A stretch of DNA of 64,000 nucleotides, from the NCBI GenBank assembly GCA_965178125.1, contig OZ237771.1, forward strand, positions 434,001 to 498,000, given 5' to 3'. The notes beneath the pieces were generated by a model that ran no database searches, was not told where the DNA came from, and was given only the letters and a program-made list of their open reading frames with translations. Origin of the DNA: Bilabrum cf. latius. Its lineage: Eukaryota. Below are positions 3,095 to 64,000 of the stretch, in pieces. Each line of letters starts with the position of its first letter. Positions within the stretch are counted from its first letter, which is position 1. The translations under genes and the position numbers were made by a program.

Positions 3095-5818
3095 TCATGT
3101 CCTTGCCATCTCAACCCTCAGCTGCCTTTGAGACTATCTCAATTTCCTAGCTGCACTCGGGTCCATAATCCCAGCCAGAGCCCCCCCTGACGCATCCCCG
3201 TCATCGAAAGCGGGCATGCCCCCGCTCATGCCCCCGCCTCGTGGGCCCATGCCATCCCCTCTACCCTCGCCAAGGCCGATGCCTCCAGCGCCCAGAGATC
3301 CGCTGGCACCACCTACCTCACCGCCCCACTCCTCATGCACCTCCACCAGGCTCCTGCGACTCATGCCGAACGTGGCGGGGTTGCGAGTCGATATCCTCGT
3401 GGACCCCGACCCCTGCCGACCCACGCTCCCCTGGGGGCCCCCACCCCCTGCTTGGGGACCCGAGCTAAAGGCCCAGTAAGCCCCAAACGCCACGGCTGCA
3501 AAAACCACCATGACCCCGGCCACTACGCCTCCAATGAGACCGGAGTTAGCCCCCTCAGGCTCCCCCTTGTTGTCTATGATCGGACCCCCCGTTGTGGGCA
3601 GTGGTGTGGGGGTCGTAGAGGGTGACCCCGTTGGCTCAGGGGATGGCAGGGGGGAGGATGTAGGGGACGGCTGGGCCCCTGCCTGAGTGGACATGACCAC
3701 CCCGGAGAGCTGCACGAGCCTACCGAACTGAGAGAGGGTCGGGTTGGGGTTGTCGGACAGTGGGGCGGCCCCAAATATCACCGTCATCCCGACGTCTCCC
3801 CGGTCGGGATCGTTCTTAAAGAACGTTCCTCGGCCTTCATCAAGGGCCGTCAGGTTCCCCAGGAGCCGAGCGGTGGTCTGGTTGGTTCCCGCCAGCACCG
3901 CCACGAAATCCGTCGGGCTCTCCCTTACATCCAGCCCAGTGTCGTCCAGGGTTATCACCACCTCGCCCTCGGTACTCGTCACACCGCTTCTGTGCTCTAC
4001 ACTCGTCACACTCGAAAGCACGTGGAAGTAGCACGTGCGGCCCGCCTCGTAATACCTCCTCTGCGCGAACGTATTAAACGGTGCTTGCCTCACACCCTGG
4101 CCGTCGCTGGCCGAGAGAACAATCGGGTGGCTCGCAGTTGCACCCCCTGGCAGGAAACCGCACAGGGAGAGCGCCCCCGACCTGTAGTAGAGCGAGTCCA
4201 GCCTCGCGCACATGATGGACCGAGGCCCGGTGCCCGGTGCAGCGGCAGGCACGACGGCAAGTCTGTCTCTGCACTGCTTGGACAGGAAAACCTCCCGGCC
4301 CGCCTGGCCGGGGAGACTGGCCCTGGCCTGGATGCACTGCGCGTTGTAGGTCGCACTCGTCACACCGACCCCCGCGATGGAGTCGTTCCCCGCGGCCCCC
4401 AGGGAAAGCGGGGGCAGCACCCCCTCCTGCTCCAGGGGACACCAGTACGCAGACGCGGGGCTCCCATCATCGCCGGACCCCCCTGCCCCATCCGGTCTGC
4501 TGGCGGCCACTGCCTGCTCCGGTGATCCGATCACGCTCCGTGGGAGGCACCGCTGCACCCCGTTGTCTGTGGACAGAGCCTCCCGTGGGACCGGGACCCG
4601 GTCTTGTATCTTGAGGGTGCGCTCGTAGGTGCCGTTCTTCGGCCACTCGCGCTGATGCTGTGACGAGTGCAGGGGCAACTCCGAGCCAGATTCTGAGTCC
4701 ATGAGTTCGGCTCCGAGTCCCGAAACGTTCACGGGCGGGGGGCAGTCGGGCGCGTCGATGCAAATGGGTGAGCACTGGTGCCCGATCACATTGAACCTGG
4801 GCTCCTGAAACCAGTTGGTAGGCTCGCTGGCCCCAGGCCACTGAAACACACCGTTGCAGAGATTCGTCCTGGCGTCCCTGGCCTGCTGGGCCGTGGGTGC
4901 ATCGAAGAGGTTGACCAGCTGCTGCTTGGCAGTGGGGGTCCATGTGCTCCCCTGCACGTCCCCCGCCGAGCAACTGCCCGGTGCTCGCCCGTCGGGGCCC
5001 ACGTACGCAGGGTCGTCGGCGGCCGCTGGCCTGGCGTTGTTGTCCGCGAATATGGTTGCAACCGCTGGGTCCTGCGCATCCACGCACGGTGTGACGAATC
5101 CACCCGACTGCACCACACCGCCCAGCTGGTCCGCACCTGCCGGAAAGGACCAAGGCGAGGAAACCAGAGTGCGGCCCGCGGGACATCTCCAGCGCCGCCA
5201 GAACACGTACAGAGTGCCAGACACTGCCCCCGTGCTGCCCTCGCCCCGACGCAGTACTCCGCACAGGTCGCTCTGCGGCCGCTCGCCCTCGGAATTTTCC
5301 GGGCGAGTGGCGGGCGGCGTGAAAGCGTCTGTCGCCGTGACTTCGCCGGGAACCACCGTGCTTCCAGAAGCAGACGCAACCGACGGAATGTCTGCAAATT
5401 GGAGCGTGGGAGTGGGATCCACTGAGCCGGTGGGGTCCGTGGGCTGCTCCCTTCCGTTTGATGCGTCATACGACGAGCAACCTGCCGACGTCGTCAGCGC
5501 GAGGCGGGAGGCGGCCGCTCCCAAGTCGGAATTAAATTGAAACACAATTACGTCGCGGGCGGGGTCTGCGCCGGGCTCCCCTACCCATCGGGCAGTGATG
5601 GACTCAGCAGACTCTGTCACGAATCCGACGTTGTCACCGCTTGGTATCTCAATTGCAATGCAGGGTGCGGTCGCAATGCGCTCTGACAAATCCGTGTTAA
5701 GTAATACCGTGTCCTAGGCGGTGCAATCCCGCGTGGTTATCTCCCCTAGTGCTGTTTTCAGAGTCCCAAGGCACGCTACTGCGGCGATGGCTGCCACACG
5801 GGCACTTCGCCGCGTCAT
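3095..5818 (-). CDS. Type I single-pass membrane protein (~907 aa): signal peptide, Cys-containing ectodomain, CUB-like domain, S/P/T stalk, TM helix
   Basis: Extending the 851-aa ORF through TAG 5714 gives ATG 5818 with MTRRSARVAAIAAVACLG, a signal peptide. YEAGRTCYFHV...VITLDD...DFVAVLAG is CUB-like. TM is LIGGVVAGVMVVFAAVAFGAYW. Reading through TAG 3134 reaches TGA 3095. Confidence 0.8.
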
Positions 5819-6159
5819 TGGTCAGTTGATATCGGCCACTCAACCCGCAAAGATGCACAGCACAATACGTAGTAACAGGGGTATGCTGTAATTCGGTAGG
5901 TTTGCAGCGCCTCCGTGGCACATCGCACCGGAACGGACGAACGAACGGTCGCACGAAGCCGAAACGGACGAACGAACCCCGCCGGCGAGGGAAGGTGGTC
6001 GCGCCAGAGGAATCCATCAGGTCAGAGCGTGCCTGAGTTATGATCGCAGCGGTGGAGACACACTACAAAGTCACACGATCCATTCAACAACAGCAAACCA
6101 TTGCAGTACAGACCAGGTACAGACTCGATTCAGCTCCAGCCCCATTCAATGCACTCTCC

Positions 6160-9100
6160 TCATGGGCTAGGGCTCGACGACACGGGTGCGCTCGAGGCAG
6201 CATCTGCCGAGAATCGATCGTCCCTCTACTGCCCCCCCGAGGCAGCACCAGCCTCTTCCGCCTCCTCCTCGTCTTCATCCTCACCCTCCGTCCTGGATTC
6301 CAGTATCCTAGGCAGCTGCTGCTGCTGCTAGAACAGCAGACCGCCGCTCGAGCCAGTCCCCGCCACACCCAGCGCAGATACCCCTCCAGCCCCACCTTCA
6401 CTCGTCACATCCCCAAGTCCCTCCATTTCTACACCCTCTCGCTCACCCCCCACCTGCACCTCCAGCGACCCTTGAGTCATCATTGGAACAGCCCCCACCG
6501 CACCATGCCCCTGCCCCTGATCCTGTCCATGCCCCTGTCCATGCCCCATCCCCACGGGCGGCACGCGGTCCATGATCACGTCGTGCCCCGCCTACCCCTC
6601 GCCATCCAAGTCATCGAAATCACCGCCGCCGCTGCTGCCAAAGCTCATCTGCCTTTCTGATCCGATCCCAAAGCTGTGGCTGTGGCCGGTGGACTCCACG
6701 GATCCGGGCAGTGGCCCCTCCTCTTGCTCCTGCACCTGCAGCACTTGACCTCGTTCCCGCTTCGATTCACCCCCCTCCTCCTCCCCCGAATGACCAACAC
6801 TCTCCTAATCGTGCCTACCGCCGCCAACTTGCCCCCCCCCTTGCCCCCCCCCTTCCTCCAAATCAGACCCGGCCCCCGTGGCAGTCCGGTGGCCCAGCAG
6901 CAGCTGGGTGTCCGACTCGACCAAGAGGGCCAAGCTCCCGCTCTCCTCCACCCCCCCCCCTGGATTCAACTGGAGCCGCCGATCGGATTCGGAGCTAGAT
7001 ATGCCGGATATCACCCCTCCTATTCCACCTCCCCCTCCCCCTCCGCCCCCCCACGCAGTGCGCAAAGACGAGGGCGGGCCCTCGGCATGCCCCTGTCCTT
7101 GTCCTTGTCCTTGCCCCGCCTCCCCATCCGACCCGGAGTCGAACGCAACCGCCCGCCTTCGAGGCCGATACCCGGTCTCGTCATCTCCACTCGTCACACG
7201 AGCTATTCCGGACGATGACGACCCCATGATGCTGTTCCCCCGGGACAGGAGCAGGCTGCTGTCTGCAGTGCCCTTCGACTCCAGAGGACCGCCGCCGCCC
7301 ACCGGTACAGCCACGAGCCCAGCAGTTGACCCCTACCCGGTCTAACCCATGGCACCGTCGCCCGCAGAGCCTAGGTTCCGCTGGAGCGCGCGGCGCCGGT
7401 CCACCGCGTCCCACCCGGAGCCTATTTCCGGCAGTGTGCCCATCTGCGTCTAGACTTGGATGATCTTGGTCATGTGCCTCGACCGGGTGCTGATCTGCTT
7501 GGGCTGTATCCTCCTGACCTGCAGAGTTGACATGTGACCCCCACCTCCCTTCCCCCCGTGACCCCCCGCTAGCACCCCCCCACCCCCCGACATCTTGGAG
7601 TCTCTCCTCAGCTTCTCCTGGTCCCTCACGTGCTGCAGCTCGAGCTCGAGCCTCTTCCTCTGCCTCATGGCATCCACCCGGATCAGTTCCTTCACGAACG
7701 CGGGGGAGGTTACCTGCAGCTCCTGGAGGTCGGCACGGGACATGACGAGCACGTCCAAAAAGTCAACGGCTCTGTAGTGGCAGTTCCGCTTGGACCCGTA
7801 AATCACCCCGTGCTGCCCGAAGAAGTCCCCCGGCCGCATCGTCATGAACACGTTGTTGTTGGTCCCACCGGGAAGGATCGCATCCACCCTCCCTCGCTTG
7901 ATGAAGTACAGGTGCTTGGACTCCTCGGACTGGCGAGCCACGAACTCGCCTGGTAGGAAAGTTGCGTGCCTCAGCCGCTGCACCATGCGGATGTACACGT
8001 CGGCCGGCATGAACTGCAGCACTGGGATCCTGTCAATGAGGTCTCTGTTCATGACGATCATGAGACGGGACCTCAGCGAATCGGGAAGGTCGGCGAACAC
8101 GTCCGCCTCCTTGTTGGGGGTTGACCACATGTGCTCGTAGAAATCGATGATGATCCTCTGAAAGAAGGAGGGGACCTTGCGAGACCGCATGAAGGCAGTG
8201 ACCTTGTCTAGCGTCTGCCTCCGCTGGGTCGCGGTGGAATCCATGTTGGCCAGAGCCGAGGACGCCGACCCGATGATCAAAGAGTACATCATGAGGCCCA
8301 CGATCACCATGGTGGTGGTGAAGCCCACCTCCAGCTGGGACCTGGGAATGATATCGTCCCCCACCCCCGTGGTGACCTCGACGGCCCAGAAGAGCGCCTG
8401 GCTGTACTGCTGGCTGTAGGGCCTGTGCGCGTAGGAGGCGTCAGGCACCCACTCGTCACGGTAAAAAGGGTCGAACCAATCAGGGTTTGTCCCGTTGAGT
8501 ATGACCTGCTCCTGGGTGTCGTCGTCGCAAATGCACAGGTTAATGTAGCACGACCTCCCAGGGTTGGGGGTCCCCTCCGGGCACTGGCCCAGACCGAGGT
8601 ACTCCTCCCTTGCTACAAACCAGTAGGCGCACCCGATATTGTGCCACATCATAAACATGATGGCAAAGGACCGCAGGAACCGGATCATGGATGGGTTGAA
8701 CTTGATGCTCGTCTCCAGCATCTGAAAGAGACGGGGAAAGAGCTTGAGCAGGCGGAGCATGCGGAATAGCTTGAACAGCCGCAGCATCTTGAAGAGTTTG
8801 TTGACACCACCCGTGCCAGTGGTGAACCAGCCGATGGGGAAGGACGCCAGCACGTCGATGGGGAACCAGAAAGAGAGGTAGTTCCCCGCGATCATCTGCC
8901 AGTCCGTGATGAGAATCCCATCGTCCTTGTACGCCGTCCTGAAATTGATGGCGATGTCCACCAAGAAGAGCACATCGGACACGATGTCGAACACCTCCTC
9001 CGACTGTGTCAGCTAAATGTCAAAGCCCAGCCGGTAGGGCACGCTGAATCCGAAGAAAATGACGAGCCCGAGCAGCAGTAGGTCCCAAGCCACCTTGAGA

Positions 9101-11153: not shown

Positions 11154-11360
11154 GATAATACCAGAAATATACAAAGTGCAAGTGGGCGGCCGAGTCGACG
11201 ATACCTGCACAGCGAACGCAGAACTGAGCGCGACCGCTCGAAACCACACGTTACCACCGCGAAACAACCCGCGGCCATCGATCCACAAAGTTGGAGTTGC
11301 AGTGTATTGTGCAATACAAAACCGCAGGGAAAAGATCCGCACCATATACGCACTCATCGA

Positions 11361-14338
11361 TTACGTCCACTACGGAACGCCTCCACTCCCGCCGCCCCCT
11401 GCCCGTACCCTGTACCCCGCCCCCGCCACCTGCCCCGGCCCCCCTCTCACTGCTCCCCGCTGCACCGCCCCCGCCACCCGTGCCATCCCATCCATCCCAA
11501 CCCCATCACCACTATCCCTTGTTCCCCAGGCCCAGCCCCTCGCGGGGTTGGAACCGCCCCTGCCCCCCTGCCCAGCACCCCCAGCTGCACCCGCAACCGA
11601 GCGCCCCGGCGGTCCCCCCCCCCTGAACGCGACCCGCCGGACAGCCGTGGAGGCGGACGACAGAGCCGCGCGGGCCCTTCCCTGCGCGGTGGTTGCAACC
11701 GCTCTCAGGTGCTGGAAGGTCCGGAGCGCCTCCACCTTCCTCCTGTGTGCCCCCGGGTCCGCCACGGGCAGCCTCTCCCGGGCCTCAAGAATCCTGTCAG
11801 CGGCTTCCCTCAGCCTCGCCAGCTGGTCGCCTTTCCTCTGCATCGCAGTGAGGAGACGGGCCATGGCCGCCTCCATGGACTGCACCGCAGTGCGGTGCAC
11901 CTCGTCGCTCGTCACACCGCCCTTCCTGGAGACGGTCTCCGCCTCCAGCACCAAGCTCGAATACCTGTCCTGCAAAGACCGAAACTCTGCCTCCATCTGC
12001 TCCAGCACGTGGGAGATTTCCCGCTCTGGCCCAAGCGTGCGGTGTGCCACCAGACGAGGGCCAGAACCATGCTCCTCCTCTTCCTCCTCCTCATATTCCT
12101 CCTCCTCCTCGTCTTGTATCCCCGTGTACCCCTGCAGGCTGCCTCTGTCTATGCCTGTGCCTGTGCTGCCCATCCCGAGCCTTCCTGCCCTGGATCCGGA
12201 GCCGGAATGTGGACGGTTGCTGTTCTCCGGTCCATCCTGTCTGGACTGCCTCTCCTTCTCTCTCTCGTCCTGCATGCGCCTCTGCCGCCGCAGCGTGGCA
12301 TCGCTCCTCGAGATGGCTGCCGCCCCGGGGCTCTGGCGCTTCTCGCCCCCTATCCCATCGGCCCGAGCACCTGCTCCGGATAAGTTGGTCGCAGCGGTCC
12401 CGGCCAGACCCCGACTCAGATCTTCATCTTCATCTCCGTGCACCGGTGGGTCCATCGTCATGTTGCCCCCTTCCAGCCCCTGCCCATGCCCCTGTTCCTG
12501 CCCATGCCCTTGCCCACGTCCCTACTCCGCTGCTCCAGCCGAGGAGGATGCCATGCCAGACTGCTCCCACTCGTCACTCGCCTTGCCCCACTCTGCCCTG
12601 GACTGGGACTGCGATTGAGATGATGCCTTCGATACTGCGGCGTCGGGCCACGGCGCACTGTCCTACTGGTTCTCCTCCTCCTCCTCCTCCTCCTCCTCCT
12701 CCTCGCGATTGACACCGGCTGCACCATCGTGCACTGCACCCACACCCGGACCCCGCATTAGCACCGCCTCGTCCGTATTCCCCAAATCGCCTGCACCACC
12801 ATGGGGTGCACCCTCCCCCTCCCCCTCCTTCCCTTCGTCCTCTCCCCCCAGCCCCAGCCCTCTCTCCACCGCACCATCCACCGTGTCACGCCCCGCCTGT
12901 TCCTCCGCCCGCACAGACGCCTCACTCCTGCCATAGGCACGGTGTGACGACAGCGCCTGCTGCACGTTGCCGATCACGCTGTGGCTGGGGCCGGGCCGGC
13001 CGCTGGGCATGAAAGGGATGGGCTTCCCGCCGTTGGCCTCCAGCAGCAGCTGCTGCGTGGTCTTCCCACCACTCGTCACACCACCCCCACCACTCGTCAC
13101 ACCTGATTTCCCCATCGTCCTGGCCCTCTCCCTCTCCTCGCGGAGGAACTGTGCCCTCGAAGAAGCGCCTCGCATAGCTCCGTCCAATCGGCTGCGGGCT
13201 GCCGCAGAGGCTTCAGCGGCGGGACCCATGCCGATGGAACCACCCCTCTCTTCCCCCTGGGGATATCCCCCCCCACCGTACCCACCCATGCCACCTGACC
13301 CCATAACCATGCCACCAAACTGCCCATCCCCGTCCCTATCCCCCATGTTGGCCTACCACGGGCGGTCCCTCCCATCCCGGCGCCGCGCGCGACCCTGCAA
13401 CGACACCTTGCGACCACCTCTTCCTGCGGAACCGGCGCCGCGCTTCTTCTTGCCGCCCGATTTCTTCTTGCGGCCCCCTCCCCCTCCTCCTCCGCCCCTG
13501 CGGGAACCCGCCCCCTCCCCCACCAGCCTCGCAGTCAGCACGTCCGCCTTGGCTTCCGCCAGCGCCCGCCTCTTGTCCGCCTGCCGCGCTGCCTCTTCTT
13601 GTTCCCTGACCTCCCTGCGCCCCTGCTCCGCCTCGTCTTGCGCCCTCCGCAGCGAATCGTCGAGCAGCTGCACCCTCTCCCCCGCCCTCCTGTACCTCTC
13701 CTGCTCGGCCTCTGCTCGCCCCCTCCACAGGCCGATCTCGCCCGCCTGATCCTCGATCTGCTTGTCTTTCGAAGCGATGGTCAGCCGCAGGGTCTGAGCC
13801 TCTGCTCTCTGCCGACCAAGCATGGACCTGTGGTTCGCGTCCGCCTGCCTTCGCTCCCTCTCCAGCCGCTGCTGCGTCTCGGATGCTTCCATCCGGTACT
13901 GCGATGAAAATACGAACGGCGGGCATGATATTGGGAGCGAAGTACATGCAACTAAGCCCCTGCAAAGAACACACGCCGGACCCATCGGATATGTACACTT
14001 AATGAATGCAACTAGACAGGAGCAGTTGCACGCTCCCTCACGTGCTCGTACTCGGCGCGCAGCCGCTCCAGCTCCCTCTTGAGGCTCTAGTTCTCCTCCG
14101 CGCGCTATCTAAGTTGCTACTATACGCTTTTAAGGGCCTCAATCACAACGCTGCTTGAGCCGGTGTGGCCAGGGGCCACTCCGATTCGCTGTGCGAGCGC
14201 CTGGCCCGGTGACGAAGGGGCTTGCGAGATGACAGGGGGTCCAGTGCGGCCCAGTCGCAAGCTGCCATCAAGGCTGCGGGATGCTTCCATCTCTCGCATG
14301 GTCTTGAACGATGCGTCCCGAGACTCTGTTGTGTCCAT
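11361..14338 (-). CDS. CEP57: CEP57/translokin-like centrosomal coiled-coil protein; intron 13899-14041
   Basis: VIEALKSVQQQLRQ (with TAG=Q) resembles the Cep57 N-terminal coiled coil. IPFMPSGRPGPSHSVIGNVQQAL and EISHVLEQMEAEF...MQRKGDQLARLR resemble the conserved middle motif and microtubule-binding domain. ORFs 11370, 12663 and 13353 are in frame via TAG; ends TAA 11361-11363. Confidence 0.75.
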
Positions 14339-14542: not shown

Positions 14543-14812
14543 TTCCGTTAAAAAGTGGCTCATTGGCCGGACCCTACCGGTGTAAACAGCCCCTGGTGGC
14601 TCATTTGACGTAATAATACCATGTAATTGTAGCAATAACATTTATACCGACAGAATGAATGTTTTTTACTCAAAGACAATTGTATCCTGAGATACAGGGG
14701 GATACAGACAGCTGCTTCCCGGTCGCCTTCGTCACATTCTTGACCGGATTATGACACACTGAGTGCATGCAATCCATATTTGAGAAAGCCAGTAGGAATA
14801 TGTATCATATAA

Positions 14813-19068: not shown

Positions 19069-20062
19069 TCACGTGTCTCCCACCGTGGAGCTGCTCGGTT
19101 GAGAGGCACCGCCGCTGGCACTGGCGGGAGCTGCCGCCGCTCCTGCATTCGGAATGCCTGCCGAGGGCAACGATGGTGACCCGCCGCCGGTGACACTCGT
19201 CACATCAGATCCGAGCGCACCCCTGACGGCATCCAGGATGTCCCCCACGGCGGCCAGGGCCCCTGCCCCCGTATCTCCGCATGCCAGGGTGGAGGAGCCC
19301 TTGGGGGGTATGACGAGTGCGCCGATGGCCTCCATGGCCTTGATGTGCCCCCCGGTGAACGGGTGGTTCCACATGTGCGTGTTCATGGCGGGGGCCAGCA
19401 GCAGGGGCTTGCTCGTCGTCCCGTCGGGGGAGAAGGGCCAGGCCCGGGCCACGCAGGTCTGCAGGGGCAGAGGCAGAGGCAGGGGTAGGGGTAGGGGTAG
19501 GGGCGGAGGCGTGCAGTTGGATGGGATGGAATCCGTGTGCAGATGGGCCTATGGGGCGCTGCAGGTATCGTCACGATGCACCTCACGAGCAGGTTGTCGG
19601 CCAGTCCCCCAGCCAGCTTGGCGAGCGTGTTGGCGGAGCAAGGCGCGACGAGGAGCAGATCGGCCCACTTCCGGAGCTCAATGTGCAGCACGGGGTCCTT
19701 CTTCACCGACGTGTACGAGGCCCACTCGTCTTCATCCGTGTATGTCGGGAGTGACAGCGCTTCAAGAGCAGCGGCGTGCTCCGGAGCATAGCCCGGCGTA
19801 ATGTCGACAAAGTGCGATGCGGCTTTCGTCATGATGATTCGAACCTGCGGCTGATACGGCGGAAACTGGTCTGATCATTGATTCACATCGTACTACTTCA
19901 TGATGATTAACAGTTTGACCCTCTCACTTCGCACCACTTAGACAGCTTCACAGCAAGCTCAGCATGTTTCACCGCTGCCACCGATCCAGACAAGCATAGT
20001 AGCACGTGTGGGCGCCGGCCTTCCTTTGAATCGGCATCATCAAAAACACCTACCCCTGCCAT
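19069..20062 (-). CDS. PPCDC: Phosphopantothenoylcysteine decarboxylase (HAL3/CoaC flavoprotein); introns 19845-19927, 19459-19586
   Basis: [70 protein letters not shown] and LACGDTGAGA; ends TGA. Confidence 0.94.
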
Positions 20063-31317: not shown

Positions 31318-31498
31318 GGTTCATTTGAATTGCGAATACTTTAGTGAGGCAAATGTGTTTGATCCACTCGGCGGACCTTGTTCCGTAAAATATTGCGCGG
31401 CGGCAGAAGCTTGACTGGCTGCTGACGTTTGCAGAGAGATACGTATTGTTTAGCCTGCAGGCGCATTAATAACCCGTAAATAGTACTGGTCTGCCACC

Positions 31499-35751: not shown

Positions 35752-36176
35752 TCACTGCACACCGGCCAGCCGCCTCAGCTGCTCGACAGTCACGGGCACG
35801 AGCCTCTGACCCTCACCAGCCGCTCCACCTCCGCCACCTCCCGCAGTAGCCCCAAGCACGGCCCCGCGCTCGAACGACACCAGCGCTCGCCCCACCCGGT
35901 ACACCGTCCTGCTCGATCCACCCACCGCACTCGTCACACCGGATCCCGTACCCATCCCCTCGGGCACCAGATCAAGCCCCCAGTCACTCACCAGCCGAGA
36001 CACCGCAGCGACCATGCCCCCTTCGACTGAGGCCTGCCCGCCTCGATGCTGTGACGAGTGCGCTGCGCCCTCCATGTCCGTGTCCGTCACGCCCAACCGG
36101 CCCAGCAGCCCCTGCAGTTTTCTCGGTCCTGACGGGGGCAGGGGCTGGGCCGAGACTCGCGATCCATCTGAATACA

Positions 36177-36211
<35 letters not shown>

Positions 36212-49939: not shown

Positions 49940-52900
49940 ATGGCATCAAATAGCGGTGGCTCATGGGAGCTGCGCGAGTTTTTTTCTGGCCCGCTCCTGC
50001 TCGCCTGCGCCCGCGACCACCGATACTTTGATTACATTCTCGAGTGCATGGGCAAGACACTCCGCATGCAATGTCCCATGAACGATCTGTCAAGATTCGA
50101 ATAGCGTGATGATCTATACATCGGACTAGGGAGCTAGGGTCTAGTAGAGACGGGGGTAGGGGTCAAGGCAAGAAGCTTAAAGACCTTTGTTGAGCGCGTG
50201 GTCGATGACGATTCACTGCCAAGCACGGCCCGGAAATCCGTCCTGCTCCCACACGCTAATCTACTAGCGTCTTGGGATGTAAGCTGCTCCGTGTTCCCGG
50301 GGAGCAAGGTGGAGGTCAAGTCTCGCCGGGACTAGGATGCTGCAAGTGGAGCGGAGAGGCTAGCCAAAGAGACGAACATCAGGCTGGCCCCGGTTCTGTA
50401 TCAAGCACAGCTCTGGGCTGAGCGTAGCAAAGCGAAACTATCCACTCCAGCCGGCCGAATATCCCCATCAAGCCCGGAGTTCGGTACAACAGCTGCTGCA
50501 GCACCAACCGAACCTGCACCGGCACCTGCGCCTGCCCCTGTGCCTGCCCCGTCATCTGCCCGCGAACGTGATCCCCCCAAGGCTGTACTGAAGCCTCTCC
50601 CCCCTGTGGAATGGACCAAGCAGTCCGCTGGCAAGAAGGCCTTGGAGGCCCTGTGTCCCGCCGTGCTCTCATAGGAGGCCATCGCGGGGGCGCTGGACGG
50701 AGGGGCGGTTGCAACCAGGAAGACGAGGGTGGCGAGCTTCTTCGGCGAGTTCGGGCTCATGGTGGAGCTGGCCGTGGTGAGCTGCAGGCTGGGGCGGTGT
50801 GACGAGTGGAAGGAGGGGGGGGAGGGCGAGGTGGGCGGCAGGGACGGGGGGAGAACCAGGGGAGGCCTAAGAGGACGAGGACGAGGAGGACGAGGAAGAG
50901 GAGGAGGGGGCGGTGGTTGGCGGAGATGGCGGGATGGGGGCGGTCGTAGGGGCAGAGGCGGGTACAGCAAAGTAGGGGGGGGTCGCACGCGTTGGGACGG
51001 GCTGGCCGTAGAGAAGGAGGAGAGTTAGAAAGGGGAAAAGGAAGACTCCGTACGGATTGATTTCAGCTCCGGGTCGGCTACGCTAAGCACGGATGGAGTG
51101 GTGATGGGTCTGGATATTTCGCCAGCGCGCGGCGCTTCTCTGTGCCTGAGCGTGTGCGTGGAGGGCGGGGAGGAAGAGGTGCGGGCGCACGGTCCTAGCA
51201 TTCTGGAGGCCTCGCGGATGGCGCTGCTGCTCGCTGGGAAGAGGCTCAAGCTGGTGGACTCGGAGTCGGAATGCATGGCGGCTGGGCCCGGGGCTGGGAG
51301 TGCACTACGCGAAGCGCCCCGCGGGGCAAGTTCGGCCGGATCATCCACCGGTGGATTGGACCCGCCTGCCGCCGTGCTTGGAATGCGGTGCGGGTATGGG
51401 GAGTTTTGCTGCCGCGCGATTGACGTGCTGAGGGAGGCGGAGGGGATGGGTGCATTGCATGGCGATGCATGGAGGGAGCTGGTGTGGGAGGAGGACACTG
51501 GGACACCGCAAGGCGATGCGCCTGATGCAGCAGCAGGGTAGGTCGCGGATGGGGGTGCGGGCGCGGGGGAAGGCAAGGTGGAAGCAAAGCCAGGACCAGG
51601 ACCAGGACCAGGACCGTGTCCAGGCAATGATACAGCCAAGGTGGCGCTGGAAAGAGTCGGCGGCATGGGCAGCAGCAGCAGCAGCGATCACGATGACAGT
51701 GACGACGGCGGTGAACGTGATGACGAGATCGGTGTCGAGAGGAAAAAGGGCAAATCACTGCCATCGGCACCACACTCGTCACACCCAGAGGATGGGGACG
51801 AAGGGGGGAACACGAGGGCAGCAGCGGTCGGCGATGCACCGATCCGAGTAGGTTACTGCAGCTACGGGTCGAATCTCAACGAGCAAAGGTTCGCTTGCTA
51901 CTTGCTGGGCGGGTCTATCCCGGGCATGATGACGAGTGAGGCGGGCTGCAGGGACAATAGCTCGCCTCGGGGCAGCGCCACTGTGAGTGCCCCAATGAGG
52001 GTCTCTTTCGCGCGGCGGTCTGCTCGGTGGGGGGGCGGCGGTGTGTGTTTCGTGGGCGGCACTCGGATCAGGACAGCCGTGGGGGCGGGTGCATCGCATG
52101 GTGGTGATGGCGATGGCCTAGAGGTGGTGGTGGATGTGGGCGATGGCAGTGTGACGAGTGCGCGGTACGGCTGCAGCGGGGCGCTGCTGCGAGCGTATGA
52201 CGTATCTCTCGGGCAGTTCAACGACGTTGTGGCGCAAGAGAACGGCAAGGACCCGAGGGTGCATTGCACTGCAGTCGAAGAAAGATCCACCAAGGCGAAA
52301 GAGAAGGTTGATCATGACTCGGAGGAGGGGGGGGCAGACCCCCGCGCGCTGACGGTGGAGGACATCGAGGCCATGAGGAAACAGGGGCCCGGGGCAAGGG
52401 TTCGACTGGGCAGCGGGTGGTACGGCAGTGCAGTGTACCTAGGGGAGGCACCCCAGTGGATGTTCGAGGGATCGTCACACCTGGGCAGGATGTATGCGAG
52501 AATGGACACGAGCAAGAAAAGGGGTACGAAGAAGAAGGGGAGGGGCAAGGGCGGGGCCATGGCTTGGATCGGTGGGGGGGGCGAGGGGTCCGATGACCCC
52601 ACACAGGGGTCAACACCAGAGGATGCCACCCCAACTCCAAGCACACCCGCCCCTGCCCCGCACTCGTCACACCCACAGGCGCCCTGGCTCTCCGACGGCT
52701 CCCTCCGCCCCGCGCTGGGCCTGGACCTCGCCACCGGCCTGGTGTGCCCCGCCGAGCAGCTGCCTGGGATGGCTCAGGGCGCACGGGGTGTGACGAGTGG
52801 GGGCGTCGCTGGACTCGGCGATGAACCAAGGGGAACCTGGTTCCGCAAACCAACCGGCGCCGCGCGGGCCACCCACGCCGACGTGCTGGTGGGCCTTCGC

Positions 52901-53266
52901 GACCTTGGCCTGGCCGTGCCCTCCCCCAGCACAGAGGACCTCTCCTAGCTGCTCGCAGGGTACGGGGTGCCGCTGCAAGGTGCATCGCACGGCGGTGCGG
53001 GGGCGGAGTCCGGGGCGGGGGTTGTGGTGGAAGGCAGCACGGCGCCGCGCACGGTTCCGCTGGTGACTTTCACCATGCCCCGTTCGTGCGAGTCGTCGCT
53101 GGACTGGAGCCGGCATGTGGACCCGTCAGCTGCCTACCGTCGGACGATCGTGGAGGGGCTGGTGGCGGGGGGCCTGGGGCTGGACGAGGCGCTGAGGTAC
53201 GTGGAGAGGAGAGTGAGGGGGTCCGCGGCAGTGGATCGGATCAGGAGGTAGCTCGCGAAGGTGTGA
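49940..53266 (+). CDS. Protein with C-terminal gamma-glutamylcyclotransferase-like (YGSN) domain interrupted by low-complexity inserts
   Basis: YCSYGSNLNEQRFACYLLGG..PG....GCRD, FARRSARWGGGGVCF, RAYDVSLGQFNDVVAQEN, GWY, PLVTFT and PSAAYRRTIVEGL. One frame joined by TAG, ending TGA 53264-53266. The start is 49895 or 49940. Confidence 0.72.
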
Positions 53267-53491
53267 CGAGTGGCAGGCCGTCCGACGAGGCGTGCGGCAC
53301 TGAGCGTTGCAGATCTTAACTTCAGATTTGGCGCACCTGGATGCATGTGCTTTTCGTCTTGCAATCAGATTCGCGCTAGGATTTGGCTGCAGCCACTTGC
53401 TTCCGCTAGACTGCCGTCTTTCCTTCCAATTCAACATGCTAGCCATGCCGGCCCAATGCGCGAACGCAGATGCACCACCGATACCACCCAC

Positions 53492-56289: not shown

Positions 56290-59200
56290 ATGGAAGACTT
56301 CAGGCGCCGAGCCGGAACTGCACCGAATTCTGAACTGCAAGCGCAAAGTGGCATTGGCAGCTTGGGCCGAGCAGGATCTGCGGGGGGTCTCCGGGATGGC
56401 ATTCGAGAGACTGGTCTTGGTGGTGACAGCATGGCGCACAGCGGTGATTTTGCCGGGCGAGGGGCTCCATTCCCGCCGGACGAGCAGCCGATGACTCTGG
56501 CTCGCAACACTGCTCGGCTTGTGAATGGCGGCGACAGACCGATCCGAACTCCTGTGCGAGCGCGCGGCAGTGCGGTGCATCTCGGCGCGGTGCAGTCTAT
56601 GACTGAATCCCGCGGCGACAGTCGATCTGGCGCACGTGCTGCCACTGCACTGGCCGGTAGTCCAACAGCAGGAAACGACGAGTTAAGGGCAAGCAGCTCC
56701 GGTGCAAAGCATCGTGCTGTCCTGGACCAGGTAGCAAGGGCCGTGCGGGCCCGAGCGGGCGCCCCTGTGGAGCCTCCTGCTGGACCACACCCACACCCAC
56801 ACCCACACCCACGAGAGGAGACCCAGGCCAACTAGGCAGGGCAAGCAATGGCAGGCGGCTCTGCTGGCTGGAACAACGATGGTACCACACATGCTGCATC
56901 ACCTCAGGTGTCTTCCTCTTCCTCCCCCTCCCCCGCCTCTGCCTCTGCTCCACTGGGCTCCCCTTCCAAGCTGGCCCAGCTCAGCTTCGAGGACGCTCGG
57001 AGGGTGCGGAGGGAGGCGGCGAGGGCCGTGAGAGGTGTGACGAGTGAGGGGGGGCGGGCCAGCGCGGGGGACGCAGAGGAGCTGGGCGGCGGGGATGCAC
57101 CTCAGGCTGCTGTTGCCAGTGCCGGTGCCGGTGCCGGTGCAGCGGCGGGCCGGCCCGGGGGCCCTGAGCCTCAGCAGCGGCACTCGAGGCAGCAGCGCCG
57201 CGCATTTGCCGGTTCCGCAGGCCTGGCGGTGGAGCGCGGCACCTCCCGGGGTGGCGGGTCCCGTCTCCTCCGTCCGCCCACTCGTCAGTCGGAGCCGTTC
57301 CCCGTGCATCTAACGGGGCGGATCAGCCGAACCAAGGGCTGGGCCGACACGGGGCAGATGCCTCACGGTGCCAGAACGATCGGAGACGAGGCGGTAGGCG
57401 AGAGGAGGAGGGGAGGAGGGGGAGCGGGCAGCGGGAGGCTGGGACGCATGAGGGCGGGGCCAGTGCGCGCCACCGGGGACGCCGTGCCAATTATTGAAGA
57501 TGAAGATGAGGAGCTGGAAGTGGAGGATGGGGGACGTGGTGGCGTTGGTGGTGAGGGGGAGGAAGAAGAGGAAGAGGAAGAGGACCGTGCTCTGGAGGAG
57601 CACTTTATGGGATCTGTCCATGCGCGGGTCGGGGGAGGGGCAGGTGGTGTGGAAATGGGCTTGGTTGAAGATGAAGAGAATGGGGGCTTGGAGGCGTCGT
57701 ACCGAGGCAACCTGAAGGACCTTGAAGATGAAGATGAAGACCAGCAAGGGGATGGGGCCTTGCAGAGTACAAGAAAGGATGCATCGCATGCAGGTGCAGC
57801 GAGGCCCAGCACCAGCAGATCCACGCTGCAGAGGCCTGGCTCGGCAGGTATGGGCGGGTCCGGTGTGACGAGTGGCTGGGGCCGGCCCCCATCGGCCAGG
57901 GGCAGGCGGGAGAGGGCCGCTGTGGCTGCACTGCGCGCGCAGGCGGCCAAGGCGGCTGGTCTGGTACTGGGGCGGGAAAGCGAGGGGGGTGTGGGTGCGG
58001 GGGAGGGGGAGGGGGAGCGCACCATCGGTATGACGAGTGGGAAACCGGGGACCCGGGGGGAATATATCATCCGCCACAGGCACAGATCAGGTTCAGGGTC
58101 AGGGTCAGGGTCGGGGACAGAGGTGAAGAGGAGCTCTGGTCTCGGAGACGATGCCCGTGCTCTGGGGTCGAGAGGGGGGGGCGAAGGGGGGAGTCTGCAG
58201 TGGATGCAGGTGCCCAGCGACGACTCGGAGCCTGAATTAGGCGCGGGTGGGGGTGAGGACCAGGAGCGACCCAGGGCTGCAGGGGGCAGCAGCAGGCGGG
58301 GTCGGGCGGGTCCCGGGGAGGCGGGGGACAGAGACAGCGGTGCGGCGGCCGATGGCCATGAGGGTGGGCAATTCGGTCTGCTAGAGGCGCCGCGCAATAT
58401 TGGTTCCGCTGACGAGTTCGGTCCCGTTGAGCCGTCGGCGGCGGGGTCCGGAGGGGCATCAGCGGGTGAGGCGGGGGACGGATTCGGAGCGATTAGTGTG
58501 ACGTTCCACGTGCCGATTCAGGTGACGGGCGGAGATGGCGACGAGGATAGTGTGACGAGTGGAGCCAAGAGGAAGAAGAAGCGCGGCCGTAGGACCCGCG
58601 GGGATACCAGGACCAGGACCAGGACCAGGACCAAGGGAAAGGGAAAGGGAAAGGGAAAGGGTAAGGGCAGGCGGAAGGGGCACGGGCAGGGCAAGAGCAG
58701 GGGCGGAAGGAAGGCACAGGAACCAGGGACAAGTGCATTGCATGACGGCACAGATCGCGTGGGCACAGCAGAAACAGCGGATAGCGGAGACGTCGTTGTG
58801 GATGCATCGCACGATGGTGCGCCTGTGACCCCGCAGGTGCGCGTCCGTCGCATCCGGGCGGCTGCGGCTGCGGCTCTGGGCAGCGGTGATGTGGATGGTG
58901 ACGAGGACGGGGGGATCGGCCGCGGCTGGGCCGGGCTTGCCCCGGATGGAAGCGAGGGCCAGTAGGAGAGTGTAGGTCTTTCCCACGGGTAGGGGGGGCG
59001 CGGGAGTGGTGGTCGCGGCAGCAGCAGCCTTCGTGTGAGCGAGTGGGAGGATGATGACGAGTGCGGCGGTGGTGCCTCCAGCGGCGGCAGGCGGCGAGGG
59101 GGGGGCAGCGGCCTGCACTCGTCACAGTCTTCCATCCCGGAAGTGGAGGCGCCGCGCATGGACCAGCAGCAGCATCGGCAGCAGCATCTGGAGGGGCATC

Positions 59201-59884: not shown

Positions 59885-59915
<31 letters not shown>

Positions 59916-61278
59916 GCAGGGGCAGGGATAGGGTAGCGGGATTGGCAGGCCGTCGCCTGGCACCCAGGCCACCAGCCCGACCATGGTGTCGCCCTCGTCA
60001 CACCACTCTCACTCGTCACACGCATAGAGGCAATCGCCACGGGGTACCAGGGAGGGTGTCCAGGGTGCATTGCACGGCCGCGGTGCCACCAGATCACCGC
60101 GCGTCTCCGACAGGGGAACACCGCGCTCGTCACACCAGCACCGCTCCCCTCACTCGTCATCCCCTTACTGGCAGCCGAGCGCCTCTGGCTCCAGCAAGCC
60201 AGCTGCAGCCGGGGCTGGATCCCGTTCTCAACCCAGGGGGGCGGGGGCGGGGGTGGGGGGAGGCAGGAGACATGGGAGCAGTGGTTCCGCAGGCAGGGAC
60301 GCGCGCGGCGCCTCCAAGCCTCGGCGTACCCCCTCCTCCGCGGGCTCGTCCTCCCGCCAGCGTGACCCGCAGTCGTTGCACTCGAGTCAGAAGACGCGCA
60401 CCACCGGCACCGGCAGGGGGAGCGGAAGGGGGAGGGGGAGGGTTCGGCCGGCCTCGAGGGAACCTTCCCAGGCGCAGCTGGACCGTGTGGCAGCGGCCAT
60501 GGGAGCCACCGTGATGGCGGGGGGGGCCGGGTCACCCTCCCTCAGGGGATAGGTGGGGTCACGGGGGTCCAGGCGGGGGGGCGGGATGGGGTCACGGGAG
60601 AGGGAGAGGGATCTTCATCTTCAGGATTCGGACGGGGGGGTCAGTGGCGCGGCGCATCGAAGGTACAGGCAGCGGCAGGGGAGTGTGGGGTCTAACCGGA
60701 GTTTTAGTGTTTCCGGCGACGAGCAGGGGGGTGGGCCTAGTAGCAGGGGGGGGACAAGCCCGCGCAGGCAGGGGCAGGGGCTGCAGCGGCTCCGGACTCC
60801 TCTTGTTCCCTGGCGGCCAAGCGGCAGTGCGGGAAGCGTGGGGTCCGGGGGCCTGGCGAGCGATGGAGCAGGGATGGGGCACGGGTTTGTGGAAGTGCCG
60901 GCTACTGGGGCTGGGGCTGGGGCTGGGGCTGGGGCTGGGGGTGGGTTGTCCGGGGGGGGCGGTGGAAGGAGGGGGAGGGGGGAGGGGCGATCGAGGGAGA
61001 GGGGTGCCTCGCGCGGGGGGACATCGGCGGGAGGTGCTGCTGTGTGGGTGGTCGGCGGGAGCGGGGGGGGAGGGGGTCAGGGCACATCGGCTAGGGGGGG
61101 GGCATCGCGGGGGGGCGTCGGGATGAACCTGGGGGCCGGTGTGACGAGCGAGGGGAGCCGCGGGTCATCCTCGAGGAACGATCGGAGAGGAGCATCTCGG
61201 CAGGGGTCTAGGGGTGGTGTGACGAGTGCAGCGAAATCGTCACTGGCAGGTCTGTACGGCGGGACTGGGTTTTACTGA
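56290..61278 (+). CDS. Hypothetical ~1,660-aa G/S/R/E-rich, probably disordered protein, intronless
   Basis: ORFs 56260, 56848, 59035, 59539, 60070 and 60553 are one frame separated only by TAG; ends TGA 61276-61278. No recognisable domain. Confidence 0.72.
59827..59931 (+). repeat. Coding tandem repeat (CAGGGAAATGCCATG)x4 followed by (CAGGGR)n ending in TAG
   Basis: Directly visible; encodes (QGNAM)4(QG)n. Confidence 0.9.
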
Positions 61279-61364
61279 GAATCCAGCGTGACGGTTGTAA
61301 GACTTAACAGTGTGGGAATCCAATAGGAAATTTGAATATGCATGCAACGTGTGGAGTGCAGTCG

Positions 61365-63027
61365 TCACGCCTGCTTCAGCCACTGAACCGCCTGCTGCAC
61401 CGCGGCCCGTCTCGCCTGCGCCACCGCGGGAGGCAGGTACCCGTCCGGCGCACTCGTCATATCGGAGCAGTGCCACCCACCGGAGATTAGTACCGCAGGC
61501 GGTTGCAACCCGTTCGAAGTATCACCGAAACCCCGACCCTGGCCTTGCCCTTCACCCCGCCAGTGGTTCAACAGCTGCCCCCCCCCTCTAGCCAGCCTCT
61601 ACCACGGGAGTAAGCAAGGTATACGGGTCCGCTGATCCCCCCAGCCACAGCACTCTCCCGCCGGAACCGTTCGTGGGCCGGTTCCCACCAGAGAAAGTCA
61701 AAATGTCCCGCTGCCGGGAGGCCTGCTGCGCACTCGTCACACCCAGCACCCCGCCGCAGACGTCCCCGAAGAGCAGCTCGGCAGGCGTGGGACCCCCGTC
61801 CGCTGCGTATGGGCAGGTGGAGGGGTCTGAGCACGTGTTGAGGAAACCGACTGCACTGCACTGCAACCATGTATACTGCCGGCCCCAGTCAGCCGGGTCA
61901 CTCGTCACACCCGTGATCCCGTCCAGGTACTGCTCCCACGTGGAGTAGGGCGTGCACTCGGCCGGTGGGAGGGGGTCTCCCTGCAGGCTCCAGAGGGCGC
62001 GATCCACGGCGTGCAGGGGGTCCAATCCACCGGCGGATCCGTTTTGCATGGCCTTGCAGAGGTAAGGCACGATGAAGCCGCGGCTGGACTGCACTGCCTG
62101 GAATCCTAGAGTGATGTCGACTGCTGCTCTCCATGCGCTTGCCGCGTCTTTCTGGGACATGCTCTCACTCGTCACACCGTCACCTTGCGGACAGAGCCGC
62201 AGTGCGTCCAGCAGCTTGAGCCAGTCGGCTGGGTCCGACGATGTGACGAGTGCAGAGGCTTGCCGTAGGCCTGGCAGCAGCACGTCCTCTGCGATGCCGG
62301 GGCAGCCCCCCGCGGCAGTGTCCCCCATGGCCCCCTGCAGACCCTGGTGGTACCTGGGGAACAACGCGTCCAGCTGCACAGGAGCAGATGAAGCGATGAC
62401 TCCGGCTAGACGGCTAGGGACCGGCGCGGGGAGGCCGGGGAGGAGGCGGCTGTCTGCGTCCAGCGCGGCTAGGCTTGCGACAATGCCGCTGTAAGAGCAT
62501 CCAAGCCCCACCCATCGAGATTAGGGGGTGATCCCGTGGAGCACTGGCGATGCACTGCCGGCATTGGCTGCGTCGCTCGCCCAATCGATAAAGCGAGCAA
62601 CGTCGAGCGAGGCTTGGGCAGGATCCAACGTCGCATTCATGGAATCAATAGTCAGGCTTCCTGAAGCCCCGTACGGCCTGGACTTCCCAAAGAATCTGTG
62701 CTCCAGCAGGATCATGGCTGCGCCAGCAGATTTTGCGGTGCGCGCGGCCTGTCCGATCAGTATTCCCCACCACTCTTCGGCCTCGTTCTCGCCCCCAACA
62801 AGCAGCACAACCGGTACAGGAGTCCCTGCTAAGTGCTTTGATGGAGCCACGAAGCTAGAGTTTACAAAAAAACGCTGTGACCACATGTTGTTTGCGGACG
62901 CTGATTCTCGATGATCAATAAGCTGGCCATGGAAATATCGCTCCTCGTAGGGCAAGGCAGCCCGTGTGAGCTGCACTGAGATACACATCAATGATACACA
63001 TCCAAGCGGAAAGAAAAATTTCTACAT
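61365..63027 (-). pseudogene. Serine peptidase family S28 (prolylcarboxypeptidase/TSSP-like) with in-frame TAA (62521) and a 1-nt frameshift in a C9 run (61578-61586); pseudogene or sequence errors
   Basis: Signal peptide M(TAG)KFFFPLGC..., QLIDH, WSQRFFVN, VLLVGGE, LEHRFFGKSRP, QASLDVARFI, WVGLGCSYSG, IASSAPV, RQYTWLQC and GSADPY. ISGGWHCSDM...AR...QWL lies in a shifted frame ending TGA 61365. Confidence 0.75.
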
Positions 63028-63195
63028 TGCCGAGATAGTCTAATGAAGGTCCCAAACTCAAAGTCTGCAGCCAAGACTCGGCCAGCATTTCCGGATCCTT
63101 TCGAGTTGGTCTTGCACGGCAGCGGGTCATGCATCAATATTAGCCTTGCAACAGACCCCACTGCGCCAATACTAAGAATAGCAGCGCCAAAACCT

Positions 63196-64000
63196 TCACC
63201 CTTGTTCCCCAATGGTAGGCAGCTGCAGCGTGGCCCGTGTGGGCGGCCCCAGCAGAGCCACCTTGCGGCCAAATGTGCCGGCCTTCGCCCCGATCTTGCC
63301 CGAGCCCCCCTGGCCCCCCCACCTCGATTCGCCCTATTCCCCCGCGTCCTTTCCCTCCCCACCGTGACTGCTCCCATTCTTGCTCCCCCGTCGCGCCGCA
63401 GTGCCGTGCACAAAGGCCTGCACATACCCCTTCATCGCCTCACGCGCCACCGCCGCCACACCCCTCCCCCTGCCCCTCCCCCTGCCAGACCTCGACGCCC
63501 CCCCACTACCCCCCTTCTTCCTCTGGGCCCGCCGGCCCGCCGCAGCCAGCTGCCTCGCCCTCCTGCTCAGCGCCTCCCCCTCGCTCAATCCACCGGTGGA
63601 CAGGTCCCGCCCGGGCATCACCCCCGTGCGCCGCGCCTCCCGTCTCAGCCGCAGCATGGCATCGCTCGCCTCAGAGGGGGGGGGAGGACCCCCCCAAGGG
63701 CGGGAGAATGACACCGGGACTAGCAAGTTTGGGCCAGACGCACTCGTCACACTTGATGATCCCCTGGTACCCGCATGTGCGCTGTTTCGATCCTTGGCCC
63801 CCTTGCCTTTGATCCGATCCCTGGCTGCCTTCTTCTTGGCGCGGGTCATCATCGACACTTGGCGGTTGGCCGCCCATCGAGCGGCGGGCCCCGGGACCGT
63901 GTGACGAGTGCGCTGACCCTCACTAAGTTTCCCCCCTGTCCCCGCCTCTTCTTGCGACTACTTCGACGATGACGATGACGACGCTGGCCTGCTCCTTCCA
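63196..64000 (-). CDS. 3' end of a hypothetical low-complexity basic protein (5' part outside the window)
   Basis: The frame of ORF 63334..63858 is open to the window edge with TAG at 63958 and 63334 read through; ends TGA 63196-63198. Confidence 0.6.

Follow-up and report, generated by a model that had tools for sequence, protein, structure and literature searches.

Why should unrelated genes of a eukaryote carry one and the same short DNA word, again and again, in exons as well as in an intron? The question is raised by a stretch of 64,000 nucleotides from Bilabrum cf. latius (contig OZ237771.1 of assembly GCA_965178125.1, forward-strand positions 434,001 to 498,000; "the window" throughout), in which an earlier note had pointed out about 55 copies of an iterated 12-mer and had likened it to the HIP1 (highly iterated palindrome) element of cyanobacteria and to bacterial DNA uptake sequences (DUS). 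We followed this word through the one 64 kb window, to which all motif results below refer, and conclude, with a probability of roughly 0.85, that it is a signal at the level of DNA whose copies were born by substitution under a directional force.

The 9-mer core of the word, ACTCGTCAC/GTGACGAGT, is found at exactly 55 sites, 28 on the plus and 27 on the minus strand, which amounts to about one copy per 1.2 kb of GC-rich eukaryotic DNA. All coordinates listed in the earlier note are among these sites; its list of examples was correct as far as it went, and lacked 8451, 12569, 27223, 34171, 37790, 53263 and 59117. Its estimate that composition predicts under one copy is borne out by dinucleotide-preserving shuffles, which give a mean of 0.34 cores (maximum 3), so that the core stands about 160-fold above expectation. 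The described extension beyond the core and the unrelated flanks are also real: the base before the core (position -1) is C in 53 of the 55 copies, the bases after it are A at +9 (52/55), C at +10 (45/55) and C at +11 (35/55), and outside this extended word an alignment of all 55 copies carries about 0 bits. The full 12-mer, CACTCGTCACAC, has 43 exact copies and is the top-ranking 12-mer of the window, above all microsatellite-like words; it is not its own reverse complement, making the extended word a non-palindromic 12-13-mer. Allowing 0, 1 or 2 mismatches to the 12-mer, the window contains 43, 23 and 19 sites, against 0.1, 0.4 and 6.6 in a Markov-3 simulation and 0, 0 and 11 in an empirical null of 114,116 bp drawn from 12 related eukaryotic loci.

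Copies are dispersed through most of the window. Coordinates are given here as the extent of the 12-mer, each obtained from the exact scan for the core and a comparison of the site with the 12-mer. Besides the copies taken up individually below, exact 12-mers lie on the plus strand at 4000..4011, 4354..4365, 13070..13081 and, 21 nt after this last, 13091..13102, then at 21207..21218, 22037..22048, 22969..22980, 25244..25255, 25558..25569, 27019..27030, 29643..29654, 51773..51784, 52661..52672, 60010..60021 and 63741..63752. On the minus strand they lie at 21704..21715, 24861..24872, 28967..28978, 30776..30787, 30908..30919, 30983..30994, 31175..31186, 45711..45722, 46224..46235, 46405..46416, 46506..46517, 46776..46787, 50797..50808, 52149..52160, 52788..52799, 53261..53272, 61217..61228 and 63899..63910.

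Could such an excess be an artefact of composition, of codon or dicodon use, of a favoured peptide, or of errors in assembly or polishing? The earlier note had proposed shuffles that preserve codons and dicodons, and the excess survives them. The 30 longest open reading frames (ORFs) over copies contain 59 cores, compared with 0.17 after a codon shuffle, 2.4 (maximum 8) after a protein-preserving shuffle of synonymous codons, and 8.2 +/- 2.7 (maximum 16) in a dicodon Markov simulation whose model was trained on sequence containing the copies themselves. The shuffle, Markov-3 and dicodon nulls thus all leave the excess standing, and synonymous spellings go unused. Nor do the copies depend on the assembly: contigs of public runs from three studies, one of them spliced, hold copies with 0 differences. 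The exact copy at 34170..34181 (+), which reads TRHT in ORF 34054-35421(+), is covered in X5, X6 and X7, and the exact copy at 35928..35939 (+) together with that at 36049..36060 (-; core exact, differing at position 12) is covered by X5 contig 14 and X7 contig 28. X5 contigs also take in the copies at 19194..19205 (contig 9), 27019..27030 (contig 10) and 37788..37799 (contig 15). Within the limits of these data the artefact explanation is refuted.

The same contigs settle the genomic setting. One X5 and one X6 contig join 32342 to 32495, skipping 152 bases that contain the exact copy at 32478..32489 (+; 32479 by its core), which ends 5 nt before the 3' splice AG. The skipped segment is a spliceosomal intron of the lipase maturation factor gene LMF1 (32343..32494, +; GT..AG, 152 nt), with Pfam matches to LMF1 on both sides of the joint, so the intronic copy that had been claimed stands. 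Because the spliced contigs delimit an intron of the GT..AG type, the host is a eukaryote that bears a spliceosome.

That the pressure acts on nucleotides follows from how the encoded peptides are spelled, counted across stop-free ORFs of at least 100 codons in six frames. Val-Thr-Ser (VTS) is spelled GTGACGAGT in 45 of its 60 occurrences, when codon use would lead us to expect 0.9, and the spelling given by the word likewise dominates GVTS (26/29), HSS (37/51), LVT (36/51), TRH (37/48) and CDE (17/20), for which the expectations range from 0.07 to 3.1. The codons that the word imposes are rare ones (GGT 0.16, AGT 0.07, TCA 0.08, CGT 0.06), and since one rare-codon spelling dominates each peptide, selection on the peptides themselves would not produce the pattern. 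A peptide motif is therefore ruled out: five peptides come from one word, and 45/60 VTS and 26/29 GVTS use a single spelling. The earlier description of a DNA-level signal is upheld by these counts.

Five of the six reading frames are used, as had been claimed, and the sixth, which would read GTG TGA, is closed. If every copy is counted in the longest ORF that spans it, 22 of the 55 fall in the GVTS-type frame, 12 in HSSH, 9 in LVT, 8 in TRH and 4 in the CDE-type frame. The GVTS frame is that of the copies at 57035..57046 (-) and 57863..57874 (-) in ORF 56836-58962(+), both exact, which are followed by an exact copy read as SVTS at 58550..58561 (-), and of the copy at 3973..3984 (+; core exact, differing at edge position 1) in ORF 3137-5713(-). 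Frame-independence, which the note had also claimed, does not hold: GVTS takes 22/55, and same-orientation neighbours within 1500 nt are separated by a multiple of 3 in 26 of 44 pairs (p = 5e-4), a statistic for which no gene model is needed. Coding constraint filters the copies, leaving the TGA frame unused, GVTS preferred and conserved residues avoided.

How the copies arose can be read from comparison with homologues, which the earlier note had suggested as a way of telling substitution from insertion. Five copies are testable in this way, one in an exon of a cyclic-nucleotide-binding ion channel (7450..9012, -; Pfam PF00520, PF00027) and four in an exon of a serine carboxypeptidase S28 (61591..62520, -; PF05577, E 4.8e-13), and all five involve variable residues and no indel. 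The channel copy (8450..8461, +; core exact, last two positions differing) reads RDEW within an ungapped conserved block and shows no indel against 8 homologues; two of its residues, D and W, are invariant, and DRW stands at this place in the closest relative (86% identity in alignment A1). For the S28 exon a word-indexed search gave nothing, and the full HMMER search gave 35 matches. Its four copies, one of which is inverted relative to the other three, fall within 930 bp, all at columns that vary among six homologues. Against a homologue of 56% identity, the exact copy at 61731..61742 (+) reads GVTS where the homologue also has GVTS, that at 61899..61910 (+; exact) reads GVTSD for DETYS, that at 62166..62177 (+; exact) reads GVTS for GITH, and the copy in the other orientation, at 62241..62252 (-; core exact, differing at position 12), reads LVTS for LVSS, in every case with no indel. 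As a side observation, this closest S28 homologue (P0026/P0064, from a metagenome), which has GVTS at the position of copy 61731-61742, is represented by two gene calls that both end seven residues after the start of GVTS, at GVTSDET.

Since the aligned copies need no indel and sit at tolerant positions, they are products of substitution at the site itself, with no insertion, transposition or excision involved. A 12-nt insert that preserves the frame, or an excision footprint of that size, is excluded by the channel and S28 alignments. The broader idea that the copies are footprints or terminal fragments of a mobile element, or the conserved core of a miniature inverted-repeat transposable element (MITE) or short interspersed element (SINE), would suit their high number and dispersed distribution; the absence of flank similarity, of any indel in the 5/5 testable copies and of an inverted-repeat partner leaves it refuted for the testable copies and hardly credible in general. 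The closest pair in opposite orientation, 62167+ and 62243-, is 76 nt apart, and a search within 80 nt of the copies found no second enriched word. With flanks at about 0 bits and no partner word, the earlier statement that the word is neither a transposon body nor the end of a longer repeat stands. A histogram of 134 pair distances, inspected at nucleosome-scale spacing, has no clear peak.

The distribution of mismatches informs us about what reads or writes the word. Among the 23 sites with a single mismatch, 17 carry it at positions 1-3 or 12 (p = 8e-5), positions 4, 5, 8 and 9 are never affected, and the 8-mer TCGTCACA, with 69 occurrences, forms an invariant core. Exact copies outnumber copies with one mismatch, 43 to 23, despite the 36 possible one-mismatch neighbours of the 12-mer. 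Among the 12-mers that contain an exact core and yet depart from the full word are those differing at position 12 at 4658..4669 (-), 6399..6410 (+), 19194..19205 (+), 37788..37799 (-) and 59116..59127 (+), at position 11 at 12568..12579 (+), at the last two positions at 30690..30701 (-) and at both edge positions at 27221..27232 (-). A strict core with soft edges looks like the graded profile of a site recognised by a protein. Decay at CpG was considered as a source of the imperfect forms and set aside, as only 2 of the 23 single-mismatch forms alter the CpG. Separately, two one-mismatch forms at 42636 and 42659 (+), 23 nt apart in the lower-GC region of the alpha-galactosidase gene, share the same G-to-A change at the CpG.

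This profile also bears on the possibility that 12-nt stretches were overwritten at once, from an abundant template, during the repair of transcribed DNA and then decayed neutrally, the template being a small RNA, reverse-transcribed DNA or an oligonucleotide. Such pasting would explain why the word boundaries are sharp, why there are no indels, why copies are limited to GC-rich genic DNA, and why one S28 site differs from its homologue at five consecutive residues (GVTSD for DETYS). Neutral decay, however, predicts evenly spread mismatches, and 17/23 fall at four edge positions (chi-square p = 0.002); this bias towards the edges argues against the decay of pasted 12-mers. The near-match peptides of the homologue at two further S28 sites (GITH, LVSS) fit stepwise change instead, and no template was found, Rfam giving 0 matches in the window. 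We regard pasting, whichever of these templates is supposed, as improbable.

Orientation distinguishes a property of double-stranded DNA from one of transcripts. The word occurs on both strands, as the earlier note had claimed, with 28 plus and 27 minus sites and with both orientations inside a single verified exon, that of S28. In 67% of exact copies the orientation agrees with the local C-rich strand, as it does in 65-69% of background near-matches (4-5 mismatches); because the background shows the same concordance, composition explains the local strand bias, and within this one window no polarity tied to the strand of transcription or replication goes beyond it. A cis element acting in messenger RNA, as the site of an RNA-binding protein or small RNA, would be in keeping with the presence of most copies in transcribed sequence, with copies in the spliced contigs and in other contigs of runs that we guess to be RNA, and with a predominance of the G-rich form on the presumed sense strand (12 to 5, among the 17 sites of 55 that score well by codon scoring). 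Against it, both orientations occur inside single ORFs (3+1 in S28, 3+1 in 3137-5713, 2+2 in 51542-52945), the strands are even overall, and the bias in orientation is that of background near-matches, so that we hold an RNA element to be very improbable. A role at branch sites or 3' splice sites was likewise rejected, a CAG ending within 15 nt downstream of 20 of 66 copies (0.30) and of 624 of 1954 background sites (0.32).

Where copies are missing is as informative as where they sit. None of the 43 exact copies lies in the 18.7 kb (29% of the window) in which local GC over 1 kb is below 0.60, compared with 11.6 expected from background near-matches with 4-5 mismatches (527 of 1954 fall there), and the density of sites with 0-1 mismatch rises across GC bins up to 0.70 from 0 through 0.24 and 0.81 to 1.84 per kb. 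This low-GC part is made up of likely intergenic DNA plus a number of conserved genes, and the part rich in copies is occupied by long ORFs whose codon periodicity is weak and whose products are disordered, rich in Gly, Ala, Pro and Arg, and without a Pfam family. Copies are present in verified exons, in the one confirmed intron and past a stop codon, the last being the exact copy at 7188..7199 (+), which lies about 250 nt downstream of the channel ORF's stop, probably in its 3' untranslated region (UTR). Together, the low-GC absence and the intronic copy suggest that the process which forms copies may be tied to gene bodies.

The word also appears to be young. In 12 metagenome loci with relatives of the channel (25-87% identity over the best aligned segment; 114,116 bp), of which one only is a close orthologue (channel, 87% amino acid identity, 3.1 kb), we found 0 copies at 0-1 mismatch, and no iterated word of comparable density came to light in these loci; an apparent 10-mer in one of them (L003) proved to be mostly a 51-bp tandem repeat. 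On the scale of these sampled relatives, 12 loci with one close orthologue, the word is lineage-specific and recent, as judged from their sequences. Exact 14-mer scans of prokaryotic genomes and viral contigs returned at least 120 stretches; of those listed, all held a single match except one with two. Chance seems enough to account for them, and they point to no donor or virus that shares the word.

Taken as a whole, the copies, most of them in weakly constrained coding sequence, record a directional force that acts on double-stranded DNA and pulls near-matches to one asymmetric 12-13-mer by point substitution, within GC-rich genic DNA and as far as coding constraint allows. What exerts it is a more tentative matter. 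We lean, at somewhat less than even odds, towards a selected binding site of an abundant predicted factor in gene bodies. The word would be what an abundant DNA-binding protein with sequence specificity recognises; this putative protein would act on transcribed gene bodies, and by occupying a copy it would mark or organise the chromatin there, each copy conferring a very small benefit. Weak selection could be effective given the very large size of protist populations, and a benefit this slight might suffice to turn near-matches into exact copies at any place where the encoded protein permits the change. The earlier note had put forward a chromatin or replication factor, a motif driven by methyltransferase or repair, and a recombination or drive signal, and our evidence would narrow these only to a graded, protein-like recognition in gene bodies; the likenesses to TGACG and GGTGTGA to which it drew attention are string coincidences.

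The main rival to a selected site is a molecular drive without function for the organism, in which a bias in repair or gene conversion resolves near-cognate mismatches towards the word and constraint removes harmful copies. Nicking and repair of the very-short-patch type, linked to a modification enzyme, or a transcription-coupled process are possible variants. Substitution at poorly conserved residues, paid for in rare codons and amino-acid changes, is what such a drive would leave behind, and a study of bacterial uptake sequences reports the same pattern in coding regions (PMC2817400). In its favour, too, are the excess of forms with 1 and 2 mismatches (23 and 19, compared with 0.4 and 6.6), the absence of the word from all sampled relatives, which suggests fast turnover, and the graded core-and-edge profile, which fits any protein-based recognition; the word contains one CpG, and repair linked to its modification is conceivable. 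Yet a meiotic heteroduplex bias should reach intergenic DNA as well, and there are 0 exact copies in the 18.7 kb with GC < 0.60. An asymmetric site of 12-13 bp is, moreover, long for the known repair systems linked to methyltransferases. For HIP1, the conservation of sites has been argued to favour selection over biased repair (PMC5861425). On balance we put a drive somewhat below a selected site in probability.

Several points nevertheless weigh against a selected binding site. The step to a binding factor is drawn from the shape of the word and nothing else, and a non-adaptive drive by biased repair or conversion predicts all the observations equally well; the absence from lower-GC, likely non-transcribed DNA is alone in leaning towards a process linked to gene bodies. 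That absence is itself confounded by the dependence on GC, such that "gene body" is not fully separable from "low constraint plus GC-rich", and the intergenic calls are based on GC and ORF content rather than transcript maps. Most of the motif-rich ORFs match no Pfam family or homologue, their coding status resting on ORF length and mod-3 phasing. It is odd, too, that a selected binding site should lie in exons, where copies cost rare codons and amino-acid changes. The S28 homologue has GVTS at 1 of 4 sites and, if this is the same word, its origin goes further back than the loci of the relatives suggest. Finally, all the evidence comes from 64 kb.

Does the word belong to a known system? Its closest functional analogue would be the bacterial uptake sequence, that is, the uptake signal sequence (USS) or DUS of Pasteurellaceae and Neisseriaceae. 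DUS frequently occur as close inverted pairs that act as terminators; here there are no close inverted pairs, the minimum separation being 76 nt. USS and DUS are moreover products of a biased uptake machine and homologous recombination in competent bacteria, in contrast to a word in a spliceosome-bearing eukaryote, and we know of no natural DNA uptake or competence system in such eukaryotes. Membership of the USS/DUS class is thus very unlikely. The likeness lies in the form: in both cases a short, asymmetric word of about 9-12 bp, strict in its core and softer in its flanks, recurs about once per kb. It lies also in the mode of origin, since uptake sequences, as reported in PMC2817400, accumulate in coding regions with a frame preference and in poorly conserved amino acids and genes, the tripeptides they encode being approximately doubled; our word, too, has entered coding sequence through point mutation, favouring certain frames and poorly conserved residues, with inflated tripeptides. 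The inflation is larger here (60 VTS, 45 of them spelled by the word) than the approximate doubling given there.

Chi and the FtsK-orienting polar sequences (KOPS), likewise short, asymmetric and over-represented, are recognised by a protein that tracks along DNA, and they are skewed to one replication strand, with a switch at origins and termini. The present word differs in that, over one window, its strands are balanced at 28+/27- and its local orientation bias is as composition predicts. HIP1 comes nearer in abundance. As described in PMC5861425, it occurs about once per gene, within and between ORFs, at a 15- to 300-fold over-representation, a range that includes the roughly 160-fold excess of our core, which is likewise hyper-abundant within and outside ORFs; the same paper gives it no evident role in peptide, RNA or gene regulation. 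HIP1 is, however, a palindromic octamer, GCGATCGC, recognised by orphan methyltransferases according to PMC4390886 and PMC13756078, whereas we deal with a non-palindromic 12-13-mer in a eukaryote. HIP1 sites are conserved between genomes and periodic at 10-90 kb; our word has 0 copies in the 12 loci of relatives, one only of which is a close orthologue. The earlier comparison with HIP1 and DUS is therefore apt for density and for substitution within coding sequence, though the word would count as neither, HIP1 being defined by its palindromy and uptake sequences by a competence machinery that such eukaryotes are not known to have. In a literature search with 9-, 10- and 12-mer strings, which left supplementary files outside, the word turned up only inside primers and in unrelated papers, and the literature searched held no description of a nuclear equivalent of a highly iterated genomic word.

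The word is not the only one iterated in the window. A second, GCGCGGCGCC, has 24 sites (for example 7388, 17471, 33933, 38847, 38899, 43812, 53041, 54774, 54931 and 60303), against 0.86 expected from an order-4 model. GTTCCGC/GCGGAAC lies within 45 nt, in either orientation, at 16 of the 24, 3.7% of the window being that close, and in 4 of 8 Pfam-supported ORFs (channel, pirin, LMF1, G-patch) a GCGCGGCGCC site falls within about 125 nt past the stop codon, a placement from which we think it may be a 3'-end or terminator signal. A third word, about 20 nt long, consists of GGTGCATCGCA and, after it, a looser cgGtGGTGc; it has 12 sites with unrelated flanks (24928, 26854, 27933, 29250, 30625, 36565, 37986, 38793, 46060, 51831, 52088 and 52979) and accounts for several "joints" of 20-22 nt between distant places in contigs. 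The palindrome GGTTGCAACC, usually followed by G, occupies 9 sites (5054, 11691, 24345, 30447, 30997, 32835, 34557, 50707 and 61501), which count as 18 against 0.16 in the order-4 model, each palindromic site being tallied on both strands; two of them lie in the LMF1 exon and ORF 34054-35421. Also over-represented are GGGAACAAGG (8 sites, 2677-63200) and GATCGGATC(A) (11 sites, 4524-63811, three of them in tandem at 37231-37263). The window seems, from these counts, to hold a small vocabulary of iterated words of which the main word may be one member; no similar vocabulary was shown in the 12 relatives' loci.

Besides the channel and S28 exons, Pfam searches identify pirin (16361-17347, +), LMF1 (31484-33843, +), an alpha-galactosidase (to 43931, +) and TRAP-beta (53492-54316, -), together with weak Cep57-like (11370-12521, -) and G-patch (38956-39798, -) ORFs; 27 of the 40 ORFs submitted matched no family. 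A homologue search with ORF 3137-5713 gave no match, a PDB sequence search with the motif-rich ORFs gave insignificant matches only, and Rfam at gathering scores and a tRNA search each returned 0 matches in the window. Self-training on codon usage was weak for gene calls, and Pfam-anchored training was used instead. By composition the ORFs form two classes, conserved genes with Pfam support and long motif-rich ORFs. The conserved ORFs (channel 7453-9012, pirin 16361-17344, LMF1 exon 32125-33840, and 34054-35421) have a GC content at third codon positions (GC3) of 0.77-0.85 and lower overall GC; motif-rich ORFs such as 21685-23205, 24745-26562 and 56836-58965 have GC3 of about 0.66-0.73 and no detectable family, and in these three G makes up 43-53% of first codon positions. 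An S28 relative of 38% identity shares a cluster with a Cafeteria roenbergensis protein, a hint of a heterotrophic, stramenopile-like lineage at a distance so large that we do not rely on it. Low-complexity tracts at 24175-24206, 27140-27200, 29760-29870, 36180-36215 and 41207-41231, comprising CAG/CAC-type repeats, (CAT)n, G-rich GGGGT/GGGAGT arrays and (CACTG)n, interrupt the short-read contigs and have very high word depth (478 at 24175-24206).

What, then, would such a word mean for the organism? We rate it an even bet that the nucleus has a dedicated "genomic word" system, in which the genome is rewritten base by base at about one copy per kb of gene body and a predicted protein reads the 12-13 bp site, with its core TCGTCACA, in the exons, introns and UTRs of unrelated genes. 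The cause would be the marking of the cell's own transcribed genes against silencing or foreign DNA, or an engine of motif-biased repair or conversion. If this is true, bacterial uptake sequences and HIP1 would for the first time have a counterpart in a nucleus: words spread genome-wide through coding sequence have so far been bacterial (uptake sequences, HIP1, Chi, KOPS), every one of them linked to a machine that handles DNA. The word would serve as a species-specific DNA barcode for binning metagenomic contigs, and a 12-mer bait would be a tractable entry to the protein that reads it. A nuclear case would have one of two implications: where protist populations are large, weak selection may be acting across the genome at thousands of sites that are nearly neutral, or a conversion or repair drive with sequence specificity may exist in eukaryotes and be able to overwrite protein sequence. 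Either cause would bear on models of codon usage and protein evolution in these organisms.

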